Assembly (NCBI GenBank): GCA_963674735.2
Contig: CAXXQS010000002.1
Span: forward strand, 384,001 to 448,000
DNA from: Myxococcota bacterium
GTDB lineage: Bacteria; Myxococcota_A; SURF-8
Direction of reading: 5' to 3'
Length of the DNA: 64,000 bases
A program made the translations under genes and the position numbers. Shown in pieces: positions 24,202 to 37,053 of this stretch. The notes below the pieces were generated by a model. It saw only the letters and a program-made list of their open reading frames with translations, was not told the DNA's origin and did no database searches. The stretch's first letter is position 1. Every line of letters starts with the position of its first letter.

Positions 24202-24699
24202 TCAGCCCAAGCGCCGGATCAAGTCCGCCGCAGCAGGATAGGCAGCGGCCAGTGCCACCGGATCGCCGGGTTCGAAATCATCGAAATCGAAACCGGGAGC
24301 AACGGTCGTGCCCAAAAGCGCCCAGCGGCCTCCCTCGATCAGCCGTGTCCCCTGCCAACAGCCCGCCGGGGCTAGCTGTTGCACCCGCTGACCGGCCAGG
24401 ATGTCTCCCCCGACAACCACCCGTTCATGCAGCCCATCCGGATGGAGCAGCAGCATCTCGACCGGGTCACCGAGATAAAAATGGAACAACTCGTCGCTGG
24501 GCAAACGGTGAAGTTTGGAATGATTTCCTGGTGTTACGAGATAGTAAATCGCGGTTGAAAACGTCTTTTCACACGCGTAGCGGGTCGGTAAGGCCGAAGC
24601 GGGGATTGTCTCGCGGCTGCGGTAGCTTTCACGGTAATAGCCGCCCTCGCCGGGCAAGGGAACAAGCCCCAAACGCTCGATCAACTCGCGTGCTTCCAT
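24202..24699 (-). CDS. Cupin_5 (DUF985) family protein
   Basis: LGL.P.P.EGGYYRE.YRS, STAIYYL, S.LHRL.SDE.FHFY.GDP, VAPGFDF.DFE. Confidence 0.92.
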   Translation of the reverse strand: MEARELIERLGLVPLPGEGGYYRESYRSRETIPASALPTRYACEKTFSTAIYYLVTPGNHSKLHRLPSDELFHFYLGDPVEMLLLHPDGLHERVVVGGDILAGQRVQQLAPAGCWQGTRLIEGGRWALLGTTVAPGFDFDDFEPGDPVALAAAYPAAADLIRRLG

Positions 24700-24737
24700 C
24701 AACTATCACCTGTGAACCGGCTTTCCGGCATCATTAG

Positions 24738-26045
24738 CTAGCTTAAGCCCTTGCCCGCCTTGCCGGTGATCCCCTTCGCACCCTTGACCATCGTGTTCAA
24801 GAACATCGACTTCAAAGGCTCGATGGCCAGCGCGGCTTTTAGGGGTGGAGTCTTTTCAAGCATACCGACCATACGTCCCAAGGCACGATGGCTGACTTTG
24901 GTGGGGTCGTCGAACAACAAGGTATGCAGTTTGCCGCGTTCGATGGCCATGGCCACGGTTTTGTCGAACACGCTCTCGGGGGTATACACGCGTTTTTCGC
25001 GCGGCTTCAACGAAATCCCGCCGAATTTGCAGCTCTGGTAACACACCCCGCAGCCCAGACACAAGTCTTCGTCGAGCACGGCCCATTTACGTTTCTGCTT
25101 GCCCTCGCCTTCCTGCTTGATCTCGATGGCATTGACCGGGCAGGCCTTGGCGCACATTCCGCAACCCTTGCACTGTTCGAGGTCGACGCTCATGATCCAG
25201 TTGGACGATACGATGGCGTTTTTGATGTCGTAACGTTTGATGGCGTTCATCATGCCGCAACAGCAACCGCAGCAGTTGCACATATAGGTCAAGCCGCGTT
25301 GGACGTTATCGCCGGTCTGCGCCAGTCCCGCTTCCTTGCATTGCTGCAGAATGTCCATCGCTTCGGAAATGCTGATCTCTTCCGCAATCCCCGCCTTGAT
25401 CATGGGATCCGCCCCGTAGTTGAGCGTCAGGCAGGTGCGCTGCGGACGATCGCAGGCATTGTCCAGATGGCTGTGATGGTGGCGACAGGCGCACAGCGAG
25501 ACGGCCACGCGTTTGGCGGTTTCGATGACTCGGCTGGCGCGCTCCCAGTCCATAATCTCGGTGAAATCGCCCTCAGGTAGAGCTTCTTCACGCGCCAGGG
25601 AACGACCGATCTGGGTTTGTCCCTGAAACACCGCATGGGCCAGCTTGTCTTCCTGGAACATGTACAGTTCGAACAGATGGGCCAGTTCCTTCATGTCGAT
25701 TTCATCGCGAGTGCGCATGAAGGTATATTCGAAAAAGCCGATCACGACCGGCGCAAGAATCGCATAACGGCGGCCCGACAATTCGAGGTCGATCACCAGT
25801 CCACGCACGGCCATTTCGGAGATACGGTCGCCCAGCTCCTGCTCGTTCATACCGATCCGCGCCGCCAACGATTTCACCGATTTCAACCCCAAAGGCAGCT
25901 TGAGCGCCAGCTCGGCATCCTCGGGACTAAACAGCATTTTGAGGATTTTCATGAAGGTCGGCGAATTGGGCGCACCCGTAACCGATTGGTCGAGGTGGCC
26001 TTGCAAACGGTTGTAAAGACGATCGGAGTTGACGATATGACCCAT
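24738..26045 (-). CDS. 4Fe-4S dicluster domain protein
   Basis: CACR, CNCCGCCC, CKGCGMCAKACP and CLGCGVCYQSC motifs, with an N-terminal HTH-like region. Confidence 0.88.
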   Translation of the reverse strand: MGHIVNSDRLYNRLQGHLDQSVTGAPNSPTFMKILKMLFSPEDAELALKLPLGLKSVKSLAARIGMNEQELGDRISEMAVRGLVIDLELSGRRYAILAPVVIGFFEYTFMRTRDEIDMKELAHLFELYMFQEDKLAHAVFQGQTQIGRSLAREEALPEGDFTEIMDWERASRVIETAKRVAVSLCACRHHHSHLDNACDRPQRTCLTLNYGADPMIKAGIAEEISISEAMDILQQCKEAGLAQTGDNVQRGLTYMCNCCGCCCGMMNAIKRYDIKNAIVSSNWIMSVDLEQCKGCGMCAKACPVNAIEIKQEGEGKQKRKWAVLDEDLCLGCGVCYQSCKFGGISLKPREKRVYTPESVFDKTVAMAIERGKLHTLLFDDPTKVSHRALGRMVGMLEKTPPLKAALAIEPLKSMFLNTMVKGAKGITGKAGKGLS

Positions 26046-26116: not shown

Positions 26117-27400
26117 TTACTCTATTTTCCCGTATTTGGCCAGTCGCTTCTCGGCGGCTCGTGCATGACCCTCTAATCCCTCGATACGCGCCAAGGCAAC
26201 GGCATCATGCAGCAACGGCGACGCAGAGACATCGTCCTCCATCATCAGCCAGGTATGCACGCGCAGGAAGGTCAACACCGACAAGCCTCCGGTAAAACGC
26301 GCCGTGCTTCCGGTAGGCAGGACGTGGTTGGGACCGGCCCCGTAGTCGCCCATCACTTCGGCGCTGGCCGAGCCGATGAACAAGCCACCGAAGTTGGTCA
26401 AGCGCTTCGACACCGTCTCGGCGTTCTCGGTCATCACTTCCAGATGCTCGGGAGCGAGCCGCTCGCAAACGGCGAGAGCCGCATCCAGGTCCGGCGCAAA
26501 AACCGCAAAACCGTTGTTTAGCGCCGGTTCGGCCGTCGGCCGCGTGGGCAGATCGGCCAGTTGGCGCTCCAGTTCCACATTCACGGCATCGATCAGGTCG
26601 CGGTCAAGCGACACCAACATCGGCAAGGCGTCGGGATCATGTTCGGCCTGGGCCAGCAAATCGGCGGCGATCCAGACCGGATCGGCGCTTTTATCCGCCA
26701 GCACCAGCAGTTCCGACGGTCCGGCCAGCATGTCAATCGCCACCCGACCGGCCACCAGTTGCTTCGCGGCCGTCACAAAACGATTGCCCGGACCCACCAC
26801 TGCGTCACAGGCGGGCACCGGTCCGGCGCCATAAGCCAAAGCCGCCACGGCTTGCGCGCCACCCACGGCCAGAAGCCCGTCGACCCCGGCCACGGCGCAA
26901 GCAGCCAAAGTCTCAACGGTGGGTCGCGGCGACGCAGCCCAGACAGTTTTCACGCCCGCCGCGCGAGCGGTAACGGCCGTCATCAACACGGACGACGGCA
27001 AGGGAAAGCGTCCCCCCGGAGCATAGCAGCCCGCACGCGCCAAGGGCGCGATGCGGTGTCCGGCGCGTCCGTCCGGCATAATCGAATCGACTTCACCCAA
27101 ACACCCCAGCTGAGCCTCGGCAAATTGGCGGATGCGCCGGGCCGTGCGCTCCAGGAGCGCATGCTGCTCGTCGGGTAGGGACGCCAACGCGGCATGCAGG
27201 GCTTCCGGCCCGATCACGAGCGGAGCGTCAGGCGCGATGTCGCCCAAACGCTCGGCATGTTCGCGCAATGCCGTTTCACCGCGCAGCTTGACATCTTCCA
27301 CGATGGCGGCCGCAGCGCTGAGCGTGGCGGCATCCACCGGATCGTGCCGACGACGATCGAGGGCATCGGGCGTGAGAAGTCGCAGGCGCGCTTCGGACAT
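26117..27400 (-). CDS. hisD: Histidinol dehydrogenase
   Basis: [66 protein letters not shown]. Confidence 0.97.
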
Positions 27401-27421
27401 GGTCCTTCCTCCAACTAATGA

Positions 27422-28678
27422 TTATTCTTTGGCATTGCCGGGTCGACGTGTCACATGCAAGGCACGTCGGTCGAGCTCGCGCTCCACATCGATCAGACTC
27501 GCACCACCGCGCAACATCGCCACCAGGGCGAAATACAGCACGTCGGCCGTTTCCCAAGCCACTTCATCCCGCGTTTCGGCGGCCGCCAGTTCACCCGCTT
27601 CTTCGATCAACTTGGCTTTCAACAAGCGCGGATCGTCCAGCAGACGGCGTGTGTAGGATCCCGGCGGAGCGGCATCGAGACGCGCCTGCAATGTACGTTC
27701 AAGCTGCGCCAACCCACGATCTTCGCCCCAGCAACTACGTGTTTTCAGATGACAAAAGCCGTCACCCGCTTGACGCACGGTAAAGCGCAAAGCATCGCGG
27801 TCGCAATCGAGATCGATACGCAGCAGGGCTTGTGTATCGCCGGAGCTCTCGCCCTTGATCCACAACCCCCGCGAGCGAGAATGATAGACGCCGCGTTTCA
27901 GTTCCACCGCTTTGGTCAAACTTTCGCGATTCGAGTAGACCAGTCCCAGCGCACAGCCGCGCTCGTCAACCACCACGGTGGGCCACAAGCCATCGGGACG
28001 ATCGGAAACCAGCGGTGCCGCGATGGCATCGGCCAGGCTCATACGCCCGCTGTATAGCGCCATACCCACCTGGGCGTCCGCACCCAAGTGATCGATTTTA
28101 GCCAACTCTTCGGGGGTGGTCACGCCACCGGCAACGGTCAGTCGGGCATCTCCGGCCGCTTCGACCAGCTCTTTCACCTGGTCCAGGTTGCTGCCGCCCA
28201 TGCGGCCCTCGCGCTCGACGAAGGTGACCAAAAAGCTTCCCGCCACCTCGCGCAGCTCGCGCATACGGTCGGTAATACGCGCCCCGGTCTTGGTGCGCCA
28301 ACCCTCCACCACCACGTCGCCATGCTCGGCATCCAATGCCGCCATAACGCGTTCTTTCGGCAGTTGCGATAACAGCTCGGGAGTGGCGGCCGTCCCCATA
28401 ATGATTCTCTCGGCTCCGGCATCCAGCCACTCGATGGCGCGTTCGACGCTGCGAATACCCCCACCGACCCGGCAGGGCGCCAAGCGAATGAGGTCTTTGA
28501 TCAGCGCTTCATTCGACCCTTGCGACAGCGCCGCGTCCAGGTCGATCACCGCCACATCCCCGGCCAGCCGGAACGACTCGGCAATGGGACGCGGATCACC
28601 CGCTTCGATAGCTTTTTCGCGTCCACCCACAAGCTGCACGGCCTGACCGTCCATCAAATCGATCGAGGGAATGATCAT
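27422..28678 (-). CDS. hisA/hisI/hisE: Trifunctional fusion: HisA-like isomerase + PR-AMP cyclohydrolase (HisI) + PR-ATP pyrophosphatase (HisE)
   Basis: IIPSIDL..G.AVQL, VGGGIRS, AGGV (HisA); SRSR.LW.KGESSG, DCDRD, FCH....SCW (HisI); SYT..L, K..EEA.E, E.AD.LY (HisE). True start is ATG 28678, overlapping the hisF stop (ATGA). Confidence 0.93.
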
Positions 28679-29430
28679 GGCCGTACCTCCGCACCTAAAG
28701 CCATCAACTGGCGCTTGATTTCCTTCACTGTCGTATCGCCATCGTGGAAGATCGAAGCCGCCAAAACGGCGTCCGCTCCGGCCTCGATGGCCTCCATAAG
28801 TTGCTCGGCATTGTCCGCGCCACCGGAGGCGATCACCGGCACATTGACCGCCGACGACACGGCCCGCATCAGATCCAGATCGTAACCCGAACGCGTTCCG
28901 TCGCGGTCCCAACTCGTAAGCAGAATCTCCCCCGCACCACGCGCCACACCGTCGCGCACCCATTGCAGCACGTCGAGGCCGGTATCGTGTTTGCCGGAAC
29001 GCACCACCACCTGCCAGCGGCCCGGGGCGCTTTGCTTGGCGTCCACGGCGAGCACCGTGCACTGGCGGCCGAAACGTTCGGCAACCTCTCGTAATAAATC
29101 GGGATGATCCACCGCCGCCGTATTGATACCGACCTTGTCGGCCCCGGCGTCCAGCAGCGCTCGCGCATCCGCAACACCCTTGACACCGCCCCCCACCGTC
29201 AACGGAATCGCGATCCGTTCGCGCACCTTGCGCACGGTTTCGACCGCCGTCTTGCGCCCCTCGGGAGTCGCCGAGACATCCAGCAGAACCAGTTCATCCG
29301 CCCCCTGGGCTTCATACAGCGCCGCCCGTTCCTCGGGGGAACCCGCATCGCGCAAACCTTGGAATTTAATACCTTTTACGACGCGCCCGCCGCGCACATC
29401 GAGACACGGAATAATGCGTCGGGTCAACAT
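28675..29430 (-). CDS. hisF: Imidazole glycerol phosphate synthase cyclase subunit
   Basis: [51 protein letters not shown]. Start ATG 29430. Confidence 0.97.
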
Positions 29431-30044
29431 GCGCCGCCCCCTTTCTGCGAGTCGGCCAACCAGCGTTTCAACAACTCCAGCCCCCACGGACCCGACAATT
29501 CGGGGTGGAACTGACAGGCCAGAACCGGTCCGCGTTCCAGCGCCGCCACGAAAGGCCCGGCATGGTCGGTGAACGCGACGTTCCAACCCTGCGGTTTGTC
29601 GGCCAAACGAAAGGAATTGGCGAAATAGGCATAACCCGATTTCAACAACCGGCAGCCTTCTTCCGGCTCCACCTGGTTCCAACCCAGTTGCGGCACCCGC
29701 ACGGTCTCGGGAAAGCGCGTAATATCCCCTTCGATCAGACCCAAACCCGCCACACCGGGGTTTTCTTCACTGGCCCGGCACAAAACCTGCAAGCCCAAAC
29801 ACACCGCCAAGGTCGGACGGCCCGCCTCGATTCGGCGGCGAAGCACTTCCGAAAAACCACGCTCGGAAAGCTGGCTCATGGCGGGAGCGAAGGCCCCCAC
29901 ACCCGGCAAAACCAGGCGATCGGCCCGCTCGGCAACGTCGGGATCGCGGCAGATGCGCGGTTCGGCATCGGCGCGCCTGAGTCCGGCCATAACCGAAGCC
30001 AAATTGGCCGTGCCGGTGGAAACAATTTCAACAATCAACGACAT
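29424..30044 (-). CDS. hisH: Imidazole glycerol phosphate synthase glutaminase subunit
   Basis: [34 protein letters not shown]. Confidence 0.96.
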
Positions 30045-33678: not shown

Positions 33679-33978
33679 GGATCGCTCCTCAGGTGATTTG
33701 TTGTACATCGCTTGCAGGCTCGGTATTTGAGACTATTGTTAGTTGACACTTATTTCATTTGTTTCGACAAACTTTAAATCCATGGCCTTAACCCAACATT
33801 TTTACCAGTCACAGACCGACCTTTGACTAACAAATGGAATCAATATATTCCTATATTTTCAACAATTTACAGCTTTCTAAGTCGTTTTTTCGGTTTTTGC
33901 GCTTGCTCTCTCAATCCAAGTTCGTTATCCTTACACTCGAATTTTGGGCAACTAGAAACAAACAGAACGGGGGTCCCC

Positions 33979-36900
33979 ATGCAACGAAACAAATGGATAT
34001 TATCCTGGTCTCTGCTACTCCTTTTAGTCATCGGTCTTGCGGCCTGTGGCGATAGCGGCTCAGATGCCGATGTCGACGGCGATGCAGCCGATGGCGATGG
34101 TACCGACGGCGACGAGCCTGACGGCGACGAGCCGGATGGTGATGACGCCTGTCCTGAATGCGACTTCCTGACGGGTAGCTGGTGCATGGCCGATCCCGAA
34201 GGCGCGGCTTGCGACCAAATCCCCCTCGATGGCGTACAGATCATCCAGGCCGATGAGTCGAGTTGCGCCTTTACGGCGGTAATCAGTTTCACCAACGGCG
34301 TGACGCCGGCCGTCTTCACCTTCGACGGCTGCGACATCGAAGAGTTGTCGTTGTTCAACGATACCTGCGAGTTGAGCATCGACTCCACCGATTCCAAGGT
34401 GACGGTGGATTGCCCCAACCTGTGCTCCTTCACTCTTAGTCAAGACGATTGCGAGCTCGGTTGTCTGTGCGACACGGAAGACGCCTGCTGCGACGGTTGC
34501 CAGCCGATCAACCAGGGCGGTGCCTGCAACGATAACGATTCTTGCACGCAAACCGACACCTGCAACGCAGGTTTCTGCATCGGTGCCGATCCGGTCGTGT
34601 GCGTTGCCCAAGATCAATGCCACGTAGCCGGACAATGCGATTCGGCCACGGGCGAATGCACCAACCCCTTTGCGGCCGATGATACCGCCTGCGACGACAA
34701 CGAAAAATGCACGACCAACGACGTCTGCACATCCGGTGTCTGCGGCGGTGAGGCCGTGGTCTGCATCGCTCAGGACGACTGCCACGTAGCGGGACTGTGC
34801 AATTCCGACACCGGTCTCTGCGAGAATCCGCCCAAAGCCAACGGCAGCACCTGTGACGGTTTGGGGACCGGGATTATGGAAAGCGGAGTCTGCCGCAATG
34901 GCGAATGCAAAGCTCTCGACGCGTGCATGCTGCGTGATTACGGCCAGCCGCTCGGATACTCTTGCAACTTCGATGAAGACTGTGCGAGCGGCATCTGCAC
35001 GGCCGACACTTTGTTTTTCAAGGGATCATCGTCGGCATATGTCTGTACACAAGCCTGCAACCCGGACAGCAATCCCTGCCCCAACGGGTTTTTCTGCACG
35101 GAAAACTACGACAAAAGCAAAGCTCCCCTCTTCCTTGAATTCGTTTGCCTTCCCGAAACCGGCCCCTTGCCCCTCGATGGCAGCCAAGACCTGCTCGAAC
35201 CTTGTAACATCGATGCGAACTGCGAGAGCGGCGTTTGCGCCTTCGACGGCTGGTTGAGCTACTGCAGCCTCGATTGCTACGTTGAGGACTCCACTAAAGA
35301 AGGACCTAACGACAATCTGTGCGGGCCCTGCGGCACCTGCGAAGAAAACCCCTTCCCCATCAAAGACGACAAACGGCCCAGCTATTATTGCGTGGCTCGT
35401 GATCGCGCTTACCCGGGCGGCCTGTGCACCAGCAACCTCGACTGCATCACCGGCATCTGCTATGACAACCATTGCTCCACGTGGTGCGGCGATTACGATA
35501 AAGGCCAGGACGACTGCATGGTCGGCTTCACCTGCACCGATGTCGGCTTTCCCCTCGGCGAGATCTGCATTCCCAACGACGAAATCGGGACCAACGAAGA
35601 AAACGAACCCTGCACCGAGAGTTTCAGTTGTGCAGACGGTTATTACTGCGACTTGCCGCCCTCCAACGGCATGATGGGCATTCTCGTCGACCCGGATCTA
35701 AATGAAGCCGTCGCCGGCGACTTCTACTCCCGTTCGAACGAATACGCCTACTTCACGGACTTCAGCTACACAGCCGAAGTCAGCGGCACCTATTACTTGA
35801 TCATTCAGCCGATGTACTTCAAAGACTACTTCCCCCCCCAGAGCGCTTACAGGTTGAACGTCACGACCGGCGCGGACCCGACGACGAGTATCGACGAGAT
35901 CGAACCCAACGATTACTATACGACGGCCCAGGCTCTAACTCTGCCGATCAGCGTAATCGGCATGTTGGAACTATTCGATGTCGACTGGTACACCATCGAT
36001 CTCCAGGCGGGCGAGACGGTTACGGTTCAAGGCCTCCCGGTCGCCGATTCGGGAACTTGTCTGGCCAAAAAAGCTTTCGGCGAAGCTTGCAGCTTCGATG
36101 CCGAGTGCGAAACGGGTGTCTGCTACTCGGGCAAGTGCAGCGAAGAATGCACCATGGTCCTCACTCGCGGCGAGAACGACAGCTGCCCCACCGACTACAC
36201 CTGCGTTTTCGGTGTTGCGATGGGCAAAAACGACTCCAAGCTCGACTCTCCTCTGGTATGCGTTCCCGATGCTGAATACGGGGACAAAGACTTCGGAGAA
36301 CCTTGCCGATTTGATTGGGAGTGTGCGGATGAGCTTTGTTACTACGGAGAGTGCAATCAGTTCTGCGAGTTTACCCCGGTAAAAGGAGCGGGTGACACCT
36401 GCCCCGACAACTTCGATTGTGTCGATACTGATGGCACACCCACCAAAGCCGGCCTGACCGTCTGCATTCCGAGCGCAGATCTCGACCTGGCCTTTGGCGA
36501 AGCTTGCACTAATGATTACCAGTGCGAATCCGGCCGTTGTTTGAATGATGAGTGCAACCTGTATTGCGATCAGGCATCCACCAAGGCCGACCCCGTTCTC
36601 TGCCCCAGCGGTTACGAATGCATCATTGAAGTCGACGGACTCAACAGCTACAACCGCGGCTGTTGGGCCGAAAGCGAATTGGACCTTGAATTCGGCGCGG
36701 CCTGTGAGGAAGACTATCAGTGCCAGTCGGATTTCTGTTACGACGATGCCTGCAACGTGCTTTGCTCGGTTCTCGTCAAAGGTCCGATTCTGTGTCCGGA
36801 CGACTACACCTGTCATTACGTCAGTAATAGCTCGGGTAAAGCAGATCCTCTCACCGCTTGCCTAGCCGATGACACTCTTAACCGAGATTTCGGCGAAGCC

Positions 36901-37053
36901 TGCGAAAATGATTATGAATGCACATCGAATTTCTGTTACTTCGGCAAGTGCAACGTCATGTGCGATATGAGCAAGGCGGATTGTCCCACGGGGTATGAGT
37001 GCCTGGTCTCCTACTACGAGCCCAGCACATTCTGTGCGGCATCCAGCGACTAA
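33979..37053 (+). CDS. Cys-rich repeat lipoprotein with embedded permuted PPC-like domain
   Basis: Lipobox LAAC after ATG 33979, DGDEP linker, C.D.N.CT..D.C..G.C.G repeats, five C-terminal FGE.C repeats. Confidence 0.87.
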   Translation: MQRNKWILSWSLLLLLVIGLAACGDSGSDADVDGDAADGDGTDGDEPDGDEPDGDDACPECDFLTGSWCMADPEGAACDQIPLDGVQIIQADESSCAFTAVISFTNGVTPAVFTFDGCDIEELSLFNDTCELSIDSTDSKVTVDCPNLCSFTLSQDDCELGCLCDTEDACCDGCQPINQGGACNDNDSCTQTDTCNAGFCIGADPVVCVAQDQCHVAGQCDSATGECTNPFAADDTACDDNEKCTTNDVCTSGVCGGEAVVCIAQDDCHVAGLCNSDTGLCENPPKANGSTCDGLGTGIMESGVCRNGECKALDACMLRDYGQPLGYSCNFDEDCASGICTADTLFFKGSSSAYVCTQACNPDSNPCPNGFFCTENYDKSKAPLFLEFVCLPETGPLPLDGSQDLLEPCNIDANCESGVCAFDGWLSYCSLDCYVEDSTKEGPNDNLCGPCGTCEENPFPIKDDKRPSYYCVARDRAYPGGLCTSNLDCITGICYDNHCSTWCGDYDKGQDDCMVGFTCTDVGFPLGEICIPNDEIGTNEENEPCTESFSCADGYYCDLPPSNGMMGILVDPDLNEAVAGDFYSRSNEYAYFTDFSYTAEVSGTYYLIIQPMYFKDYFPPQSAYRLNVTTGADPTTSIDEIEPNDYYTTAQALTLPISVIGMLELFDVDWYTIDLQAGETVTVQGLPVADSGTCLAKKAFGEACSFDAECETGVCYSGKCSEECTMVLTRGENDSCPTDYTCVFGVAMGKNDSKLDSPLVCVPDAEYGDKDFGEPCRFDWECADELCYYGECNQFCEFTPVKGAGDTCPDNFDCVDTDGTPTKAGLTVCIPSADLDLAFGEACTNDYQCESGRCLNDECNLYCDQASTKADPVLCPSGYECIIEVDGLNSYNRGCWAESELDLEFGAACEEDYQCQSDFCYDDACNVLCSVLVKGPILCPDDYTCHYVSNSSGKADPLTACLADDTLNRDFGEACENDYECTSNFCYFGKCNVMCDMSKADCPTGYECLVSYYEPSTFCAASSD

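Follow-up and report, generated by a model that had tools for sequence, protein, structure and literature searches.

In a 64,000-nucleotide stretch of a Myxococcota genome (assembly GCA_963674735.2, contig CAXXQS010000002.1, positions 384,001 to 448,000; hereafter the window), the histidine operon contains a gene, hisAIE, that joins HisA, HisI and HisE in a single polypeptide. The best explanation of our results, to which we assign a probability of about 0.8, is that hisAIE is a trifunctional gene of a bacterial HisA-HisI-HisE (A-I-E) family and that fungal His4 drew its N-terminal domain, together with its I and E domains (N-I-E), from an A-I-E module, its histidinol dehydrogenase (D) domain having been acquired separately. 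An initial annotation of the window had proposed the operon as the prokaryotic sister or precursor of His4. This proposal stands for the N-I-E part, where the tree, the profiles and the predicted fold agree with it, and falls for the D domain.

The hisAIE gene and its bacterial family

hisAIE is an open reading frame (ORF) of the minus strand at 27422-28678 and encodes 418 amino acids (aa) from an ATG at 28678; a longer ORF call that starts with GTG is an upstream extension of it. Its description as one ORF with HisA, HisI and HisE was confirmed by translation and by three Pfam domains, all above their cut-offs: His_biosynth at residues 1-213 (143 bits; cut-off 23.6), PRA-CH at 246-317 (85.9 bits; cut-off 27) and PRA-PH at 324-405 (62.1 bits; cut-off 21.3). 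The HisE domain also passed the TIGR03188 cut-off (65.3 versus 42.7 bits). The domains follow each other in the order A-I-E in one reading frame, and the protein falls in the crown clade of the I/E tree described below; both place it in the A-I-E fusion family. The parts of the gene and its junction with the following gene, hisD, are:

28013..28678, minus strand: HisA (ProFAR isomerase) domain, residues 1-222, with D7, G72-G73-G74-I75-R76, T152-F-V-E-R-E-G158 and A183-G-G185
27719..28012, minus strand: HisI (phosphoribosyl-AMP cyclohydrolase) domain, residues ~223-320, with D291-C292-D293, C309-H310 and C316
27425..27718, minus strand: HisE (phosphoribosyl-ATP pyrophosphohydrolase) domain, residues ~321-418, with E359-E360-x-x-E363, E376 and D379
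27401..27424, minus strand: TAA stop codon of hisAIE (27422-27424) and the 21-nucleotide in-frame spacer before the ATG of hisD

One polypeptide would thus serve steps 2, 3 and 4 of histidine biosynthesis through HisE, HisI and HisA, respectively. Translation across the junction (minus strand, 27386-27436) confirmed that the TAA, seven sense codons and the ATG of hisD share one frame. We agree with the earlier estimate that a shared frame has about a 1-in-3 probability of arising by chance. A Shine-Dalgarno-like run, GGAGGAAGG, lies inside the spacer at 27404-27412, and hisD may be translated from this ribosome-binding site of its own.

The architecture is widespread. All of the best 120 of 7825 scored relatives of near-equal length carry the three Pfam domains, at 66-74% identity, and thousands of database proteins from at least six bacterial phyla have the A-I-E architecture. 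An assembly or frameshift artefact, or a chance ORF, is ruled out because so many proteins share the architecture and because the 120 relatives are so similar. Among loci of GTDB species representatives, each of the 80 listed aligns with 394 or more of the 418 residues and shares 61-71% identity. Their source genomes belong to Planctomycetota (including Phycisphaerae and Pirellulaceae), Myxococcota/Bradymonadales, Gemmatimonadota/Longimicrobiales, Alphaproteobacteria, Acidobacteriota and Actinomycetota (Acidimicrobiaceae). hisAIE is an ordinary member of a large fusion family spread across phyla. The bacterial members, fused to D or not, share with it the same domains in the same order, 61-74% identity, the TFVEREG motif and an operon neighbourhood in which hisD comes next.

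Within 201 genomes of the same phylum, 47 entries were full-length fusions of this main type, 17 were a second type, A-I-E2 (43-51% identity), and about 10 were a third, A-I-E3 (29-41%). Other genomes of the phylum carry a separate HisA (32-41% identity) and a standalone HisIE, which is only 38-48% identical to the I/E part of the fusion (~70-97 bits). The separate HisA and HisIE of the Escherichia coli/Salmonella type catalyse the same three reactions with the same folds (Shigella-type HisIE 6j22 of the PDB, 69 bits), but they are encoded by separate genes and their HisA has an Asp where the fusion has Phe153. A-I-E2 occurs in family f12 (for example L018 and L020; G188:C230:6015-7244), lies outside the crown clade, and is followed or preceded by a hisD (L111) that forms the sister lineage of the HisD clade associated with A-I-E. 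Besides the main fusion, genomes G123, G063, G078, G083, G133 and G022 of the phylum carry another A-I-E-like gene, which has diverged strongly (for example G123:C82:29801-31015; L021-L024 in the tree); it is 29-41% identical over ~400 residues and has a branch of 1.62 in the I/E tree.

A survey for full A-I-E-D fusions, suggested with the initial annotation, found them in bacteria among the longer proteins (823-950 aa, at most 71% identity). In these proteins, such as P0122 (71%), hisD is fused by a short linker, whereas here it is a separate gene, and the hisAIE stop codon aligns exactly where the fused relatives start their variable linker. Counting A-I-E-D fusions of the phylum by open-frame length was dropped because open frames also extend upstream (the window's own is 623 aa long). 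In the I/E tree the A-I-E-D sequences are scattered (seven sequences, five changes), so fusion and fission with hisD seem to be frequent. NCBI names bacterial A-I-E and A-I-E-D proteins mostly 'phosphoribosyl-ATP diphosphatase' or 'histidinol dehydrogenase'. Annotation pipelines thus misname the family after one of its three activities, which can now be corrected.

The I, E and D domains of fungal His4

We searched the I/E part of hisAIE (residues 220-418, 199 aa) against 1.84 billion representatives; 4740 proteins passed a threshold of E≤1e-3, and 317 passed E≤1e-30. The top 150 matches (190-268 bits, 49-66% identity) included named fungal His4 proteins, whose I/E domains are 53-62% identical to those of hisAIE; over the 199-aa query, named His4 proteins reached 55-62% identity at 230-235 bits. 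For comparison, standalone HisIE of the same phylum scored ~70-97 bits and the Shigella-type HisIE in the PDB 69 bits. A profile of A-I-E I/E domains gave the same picture, with 271-311 bits for the named fungi versus 97-135 bits for nine full-length standalone HisIE of the same phylum. The named His4 matches came from Actinomortierella, Mycena, Blastocladiella, Cladochytrium, Ascosphaera and Ascoidea; other named matches came from the choanoflagellates Hartaetosiga and Salpingoeca urceolata, from Rigifila and from the diplonemid Sulcionema. Also among the matches was a 414-aa 'His7' protein with the N domain and I/E (N+IE; EEB07313.1 / B6K2D2), which we take to be from a Schizosaccharomyces. 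In a Pfam scan of 24 matches, 21 had ~100-300 or more residues before PRA-CH that lacked His_biosynth, and 14 continued into Histidinol_dh, the His4 layout. The HisI and HisE residues D291, C292, D293, C309, H310, C316, E359, E360, E363, E376 and D379 stand in columns that are invariant among 63 His4-type proteins; we assume that the Cys/His/Asp cluster of HisI and the Glu/Asp cluster of HisE bind metal.

Two records in this set, P0313 and P0336, look unusual. In one, the 'His4' of Ascoidea rubescens (1414 aa), a nucleoside-transporter domain set comes first, probably because two gene models were merged. The other, a His4-like N+IE protein listed for the amphipod Hirondellea gigas, probably stems from a contaminating fungal or protist transcript.

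The I/E tree was built from 63 sequences, after the standalone or A-I-E2 loci L006, L011 and L019 (no I/E match obtained) and L016 (partial) had been dropped. A clade of 53 A-I-E sequences was split from 10 standalone HisIE (support 100/98). Within it, a crown clade of 47 sequences (99/92) held the main-type bacterial A-I-E and A-I-E-D proteins and all eukaryotes, fungi included. The fungi formed one clade (99/92), nested in a eukaryotic clade of 13 sequences (99/91) that includes proteins with an intact HisA. Thus, the claim that the I/E domains are much closer to fungal His4 than to ordinary HisIE was borne out by identity, by bit scores and by the tree, in which the fungi lie inside the A-I-E clade and not with standalone HisIE. 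Part of this is already in print: a network analysis by Witek et al. (2021) placed the His4 I/E domains near Myxococcales.

In which direction did the module travel? When the tree is rooted on standalone HisIE, the all-bacterial A-I-E2 and A-I-E3 types branch outside the crown, and a bacterial origin of the architecture is therefore favoured. We infer the donor and the direction of transfer solely from this branching. The module could instead have arisen in eukaryotes and passed to bacteria, which would make the bacterial gene a descendant of the His4 lineage. Bacteria and eukaryotes are indeed intermixed inside the crown, and copies found across at least six bacterial phyla differ at only 29-39% of positions, which points to recent spread between phyla. 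A eukaryotic origin is nevertheless unlikely: the position of A-I-E2 and A-I-E3 outside the crown means that bacteria had the architecture earlier, the bacterial copies are part of tightly packed operons with overlapping genes, and in the D tree described below seven of the eight eukaryotic sequences form one group nested among bacterial ones (Shimodaira-Hasegawa-like approximate likelihood ratio test (SH-aLRT) 94 and 85). Two points weigh against our reading of a bacterial source. Relations between bacteria and eukaryotes within the crown are unsettled, with 22 of 60 branches open, and the outgroups of both the I/E and the D tree come from one phylum.

The D domain gave a different result. 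In phmmer comparisons with the HisD of the window, the HisD of A-I-E neighbours, A-I-E-D fusions and the fused D of eukaryotes scored 323-554 bits, the HisD of ten genomes of the same phylum (chosen for standalone HisIE or A-I-E2) 232-292 bits, and five fungal-type D sequences (four named His4 and P0298) 175-225 bits. Seen from a fungal D domain, the scores were 502 bits for Medicago HisD, 421 for a Bacteroidota HisD and 393 for E. coli HisD, versus 191-238 bits for bacterial A-I-E-type D and 156-246 for eukaryotic fused D. The window HisD scored 213 bits against Medicago HisD. On the Pfam HisD model, fungal D domains reached 517-540 bits versus 405-435 bits for A-I-E-type D.

In a tree of 42 D sequences (L069, at 155 bits a probable paralogue, was left out, as were L079 and L085, which had no HisD ORF in the flank), 27 A-I-E-associated sequences formed one clade (SH-aLRT 99) that includes the window hisD, Hartaetosiga and the eukaryotic fused D. 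The five fungal sequences (100) fell across a split of 98, with ordinary HisD. On these scores and this tree, the D domain of His4 appears to belong to the plant/E. coli-type HisD subfamily and not to the A-I-E type, so bacterial A-I-E-D fusions would not be its source. The proposal that the operon's hisD, or a bacterial A-I-E-D protein, is the precursor of His4 D did not survive this comparison. The trees of Fani et al. (2007; PMC1963479) agree with a separate D: fungal and plant HisD stand together there and their HisIE apart.

Could His4 still descend whole from an A-I-E-D fusion like the bacterial ones, its D being a fast-evolved member of the same lineage as hisD? A-I-E-D fusions do exist in bacteria and protists, and the choanoflagellate Hartaetosiga protein (868 aa) combines a degenerate N-domain and I-E with an A-I-E-type D. 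The D tree itself leaves room for doubt, and here the evidence runs against our reading at several points: the tree was of the quick type; the fungal D branch is long (1.47), which could suit rapid change; and in the approximately unbiased (AU) test, a topology with the fungi and all A-I-E-type D in one clade, opposite ten ordinary HisD, was not rejected (p-AU 0.37). Uniting the fungi with the seven eukaryotic fused D sequences costs 45 log-likelihood units (p-AU 0.032), which speaks against whole descent, but this p is marginal and the group was named after the tree had been seen, so that its support is weak. The scores are harder to reconcile with whole descent. Fungal D is far closer to Medicago (502 bits) and E. 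coli (393) HisD than to the bacterial and eukaryotic A-I-E-type D sequences compared (191-238 and 156-246 bits), and the window HisD itself reaches only 213 bits with Medicago HisD. With the Pfam HisD model, too, fungal D outscores A-I-E-type D, whereas simple fast divergence should have lowered its score. We therefore consider descent of His4 as a whole improbable. Because its D domain would come from a different HisD subfamily, His4 would be a mosaic and not the descendant of a bacterial A-I-E-D gene.

The HisA domain and the N-domain of His4

The HisA domain differs from known HisA at its active site. The initial annotation had noticed that the acid motif reads TFVEREG, and it does so at residues 152-158. 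This motif aligns with the T-D-V-x-K-D-G of solved PriA/HisA chains. D7, G72-G74 with R76, and A183-G184-G185 align with the same motifs of the solved chains. D7 presumably is the N-terminal catalytic Asp at the end of beta-1, and we take the two glycine motifs to be phosphate-binding, as in HisA and PriA. Across the 120 relatives D7, G72-G74, T152, F153, E157, G158 and A183-G185 are invariant and E155 is kept in 118; Phe thus replaces the beta-5 Asp in 120 of 120, and a Glu lies two residues further on. We modelled the protein with AlphaFold2 (AF2; whole-protein predicted local distance difference test score (pLDDT) 90.3). Modelled residues 1-224 best matched Mycobacterium tuberculosis PriA with bound PRFAR (Z 29.3, root-mean-square deviation (rmsd) 1.7 Å over 221 residues), and the match to Salmonella HisA was nearly as good (Z 29.0).

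The fusion had been called the only HisA candidate in the operon. This holds genome-wide for strong matches: across the 5.26-Mb assembly (94% complete), PF00977 strongly matched only HisF and this HisA domain, with two further matches at only ~20 bits, and PF01502 had a single match, hisAIE. The HisA barrel is probably the cell's only ProFAR isomerase, its activity being suggested by conserved residues and the modelled fold.

Alternatively, the HisA domain might be inactive or serve another role, with a different enzyme performing ProFAR isomerisation. The case for this is that Phe153 stands at the Asp of T-D-V in the solved chains, and that the domain scores below the NCBIfam HisA equivalog cut-offs (TIGR00007, 152.7 versus 228.95; NF010112, 165.6 versus 243); both facts count against an active HisA. 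We read the low scores as the mark of a divergent subfamily and not of failed homology. A His6/HISN3-type HisA was rejected as a label, since the eukaryotic-type model TIGR02129 gave only 36.6 bits versus a cut-off of 229. An inactive domain is very unlikely in our view. Besides HisF, the 94%-complete genome has no other strong His_biosynth match; the near-invariance of D7, GGGIR, AGG and the variant motif in 120 relatives indicates strong selection; the model superposes on substrate-bound PriA with an rmsd of 1.7 Å; and the truly decayed fungal copies described below lose all those motifs. TFVEREG is also kept in nine of ten eukaryotic full-A fusions examined, including the Acanthamoeba protein, and according to Rice et al. 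(2018; PMC6029752), Acanthamoeba grows without histidine. Because the motif is conserved throughout the 120 relatives, it appears to be a fixed character of the clade and not a sign of decay.

His4 has an N-domain in the position that HisA occupies in hisAIE, directly before I-E. Fani et al. (2007; PMC1963479) describe this 160-220-residue region as of unknown function and without a significant match, and report that S. pombe keeps it on its split hisIE product. The initial annotation had suggested that it is a decayed HisA. We applied an A-I-E HisA model to the region before I-E. Intact domains scored 318-351 bits, and eukaryotic intermediates scored 170, 164, 102, 100 (Sulcionema), 44 (Rigifila) and 42 bits (Salpingoeca urceolata). 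In fungi the model gave weak collinear matches or none. Direct searches with a hidden Markov model of A-I-E HisA were also weak against the named fungal N-domains, with a domain E<0.01 in 38 of 104 and a maximum of 25.3 bits, and PF00977 was present in none of the 119 relatives listed, according to precomputed annotation.

Among the sequence comparisons, we find only the profile-profile alignments convincing. With hhalign, a profile of 79 His4-type N-domains matched A-I-E HisA at 99.1% (E 1.5e-18, 184 columns), a profile of 63 N-domains with less than 10 bits of direct signal at 98.7% (E 4.1e-16, 188 columns), and a profile of 104 named fungal N-domains, drawn from 110 named proteins among 120 relatives, at 98.1% (E 6.8e-14, 177 columns). 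Seven controls for each of the latter two sets (the reversed profile, five column shuffles and the I/E profile) gave P of 0.24-0.86 and probabilities of at most 0.2%. The fungal N profile matched 16 standalone HisA at E 2.6e-5 and 21 HisF at E 2.3e-5. The match appears specific for A-I-E-type HisA because these values of ~2-4e-5 compare with 6.8e-14. Some features are visible by eye: M-I-I-P-S-I at the N-terminus (in some fungi), L-D-A-G-A, P-x-E-R and the last helix before S-D-R-P-D-G-L are kept. GGGIR, TFVEREG and AGG are gone from the fungal N-domains. TFVEREG is likewise absent from five partly decayed eukaryotic copies that we checked (Rigifila, Salpingoeca, Sulcionema and two more).

We also predicted the structure of the 414-aa fungal N+IE protein with AF2, from an alignment of 63 sequences, none with detectable HisA signal. 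The model (pLDDT 93.6) folds residues 1-200 into eight strand-helix (beta-alpha) units. Superposed on Salmonella HisA, it gave Z 15.5-15.9 and an rmsd of 2.6-2.8 Å over 179-184 residues (model residues 2-202). In Foldseek the first matches were HisIE, and the first barrel was HisF at rank 15 (E 1.3e-5). In a second look with VIA over 999 chains, the top 50 entries were all HisIE/HisI or HisA/HisF, including designs on the HisF scaffold. A protein-atlas search with the fungal N-domain returned one match at 0.76, probably its own cluster, with no structure model. Two caveats bear against our interpretation: Foldseek gave unrelated TIM barrels E values similar to that of HisA (~3e-4), and the AF2 fold of the fungal N-domain could partly be recall of HisA-like barrels.

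That the likeness is a generic resemblance among TIM barrels and not descent, as an identity of only 19-21% in the profile alignments and the overlap of Foldseek E values for HisA/HisF (1e-5 to 3e-4) with those of unrelated TIM barrels might suggest, is highly improbable in view of the E value of 6.8e-14 to A-I-E HisA versus 2.3-2.6e-5 to standalone HisA or HisF (controls at P of about 0.25 and above), the collinear match over 177-188 columns at the same place directly before I-E, the retained M-I-I-P-S-I, L-D-A-G-A and P-x-E-R, the protist intermediates that run from 170 down to 20 bits, and the VIA top 50. The profile matches with clean controls, their specificity and the predicted (beta-alpha)8 barrel, closest to HisA/HisF, thus support the view that the fungal N-domain is a decayed HisA.

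The His4 N-domain and I-E would descend together from an A-I-E module, the barrel having lost its catalytic and phosphate-binding motifs. The decay may have followed from the separate HisA of fungi, His6. Fungal His4 (S. cerevisiae HIS4, and the split N+IE His7 of 414 aa versus 418 aa here) thus resembles hisAIE in an I-E part of the same clade, 53-62% identical, and in a homologous N-domain at the same position. It differs in that its N-domain is degenerate and without GGGIR, TFVEREG and AGG, whereas the HisA of hisAIE has motifs conserved across 120 relatives, and in that its D is fused and of the other HisD subfamily, whereas here a TAA and a separate start precede an A-I-E-type HisD. Two choanoflagellates have decayed A domains as well: in Hartaetosiga (P0334, 868 aa) the N-domain is degenerate and is combined with I-E and a D of the A-I-E type, and the A domain of Salpingoeca urceolata (P0281), at residues 455-654, is decayed in part (42 bits). 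The decay of HisA thus does not seem to be confined to fungi, and outside them the original D was kept.

A full-text search, with subscription journals, domain databases and supplements outside its reach, found no published statement that the His4 N-domain derives from HisA. A 2023 review (PMC10138114) lists seven his genes in fusions, and hisA is not among them.

The operon and the multi-domain His proteins of eukaryotes

The his operon of the window is compact, in the order hisG / hisC-HAD / hisB / hisH / hisF / hisAIE / hisD. The genes around hisAIE are:

26117..27400, minus strand: hisD (histidinol dehydrogenase), 427 aa; Histidinol_dh 422 bits, TIGR00069 409 bits
28675..29430, minus strand: hisF (cyclase subunit); TIGR00735 315 bits, above the cut-off of 294.55
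29424..30044, minus strand: hisH (glutamine amidotransferase subunit); Pfam GATase 46 bits
30047..30640, minus strand: hisB (imidazoleglycerol-phosphate dehydratase only); Pfam IGPD 199 bits
30631..32361, minus strand: hisC fused to a HAD-type hydrolase, 576 aa; Aminotran_1_2 at 43-350, HAD_2 at 359-537; TIGR01141 hisC 206 bits
32375..33286 (ORF as listed), minus strand: hisG, long-form ATP phosphoribosyltransferase; HisG 113 bits and HisG_C 69 bits

The TGA stop of hisF overlaps the ATG of hisAIE (ATGA at 28675-28678), and hisAIE may be translationally coupled to hisF through this overlap. The likely start of hisG is a Met at ~33247. The HAD part of hisC-HAD (TIGR01548 133.9 bits, just below the cut-off of 140.2) is likely a histidinol-phosphate phosphatase of the HisN type, because the operon holds no other. 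Just downstream of hisD, at 24202-26045 (minus strand), are the genes of a 435-aa protein that bears a pair of 4Fe-4S ferredoxin motifs and of a 166-aa DUF985 cupin; these genes have no evident tie to histidine synthesis. On the other side, a 1076-aa ORF on the plus strand (33823-37053) starts in the manner of a signal peptide and contains an acidic stretch rich in D and G as well as numerous repeats of cysteine-rich modules (C-x-x-C, CxxxxC).

The search among longer proteins also found eukaryotic proteins that match the full query at 54-62% identity, including those of Acanthamoeba castellanii (1682 aa) and Thecamonas trahens (1720 aa). Their Pfam architectures include H-F-A-I-E-D-G, H-F-A-I-E-D, A-I-E-G, A-I-E-D-C-HAD and H-F-A-I-E-B. 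For each operon gene, some eukaryotic fusion has a matching domain, at 33-64% identity: HisB 48%, HisH 42-51%, HisF 60-64%, HisD 53-57%, hisG 47-50% to the G domains with which the Acanthamoeba and Thecamonas proteins end, and hisC-HAD 33-35% over ~567 aa to the C-HAD end of the A-I-E-D-C-HAD proteins P0148 and P0192; P0333 ends in the same pair. The proteins of Acanthamoeba and Thecamonas keep TFVEREG in an A-I-E core that shares 55-59% identity with hisAIE, and for their H, F, D and G domains the identity to the operon genes is 44-64%. The Acanthamoeba order H-F-A-I-E-D is collinear with the operon. The two differ in that the eukaryote makes a single polypeptide with G moved to the end, whereas the bacterium has separate, overlapping genes. 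Acanthamoeba, Thecamonas and other protists would thus have multi-domain His proteins built from the same A-I-E module and from H, F, D, G, B and C-HAD domains similar to those that the operon encodes. The heptafunctional H-F-A-I-E-D-G protein of Acanthamoeba is published; Rice et al. (2018; PMC6029752) leave its origin open.

We lean towards a scenario in which an early eukaryote took up a whole his operon of the type found here, with H, F, A-I-E, D, G, B and C-HAD, and fused the genes so that they encoded giant proteins. Fungi would have kept only A-I-E, the HisA part of which would have decayed to a dead structural domain once His6 took over, and would have joined it to a plant/E. coli-type HisD.

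If the reading of His4 is true, its N-region (160-220 residues, 'of unknown function' since at least 2007) is a pseudo-HisA, and hisAIE is the intact reference form by which this domain can be identified. One bacterial-type A-I-E module would then tie together His4, the split His7 of the Schizosaccharomyces type and the giant His proteins found in amoebae, apusomonads and choanoflagellates, and what textbooks call a 'hisIED fusion' would more aptly be termed a pseudo-A, I and E unit with a foreign D attached. The TFVEREG variant of the active site would offer a natural experiment on HisA catalysis, and the role of the His4 N-domain, as a pseudoenzyme or a scaffold, is now open to tests.

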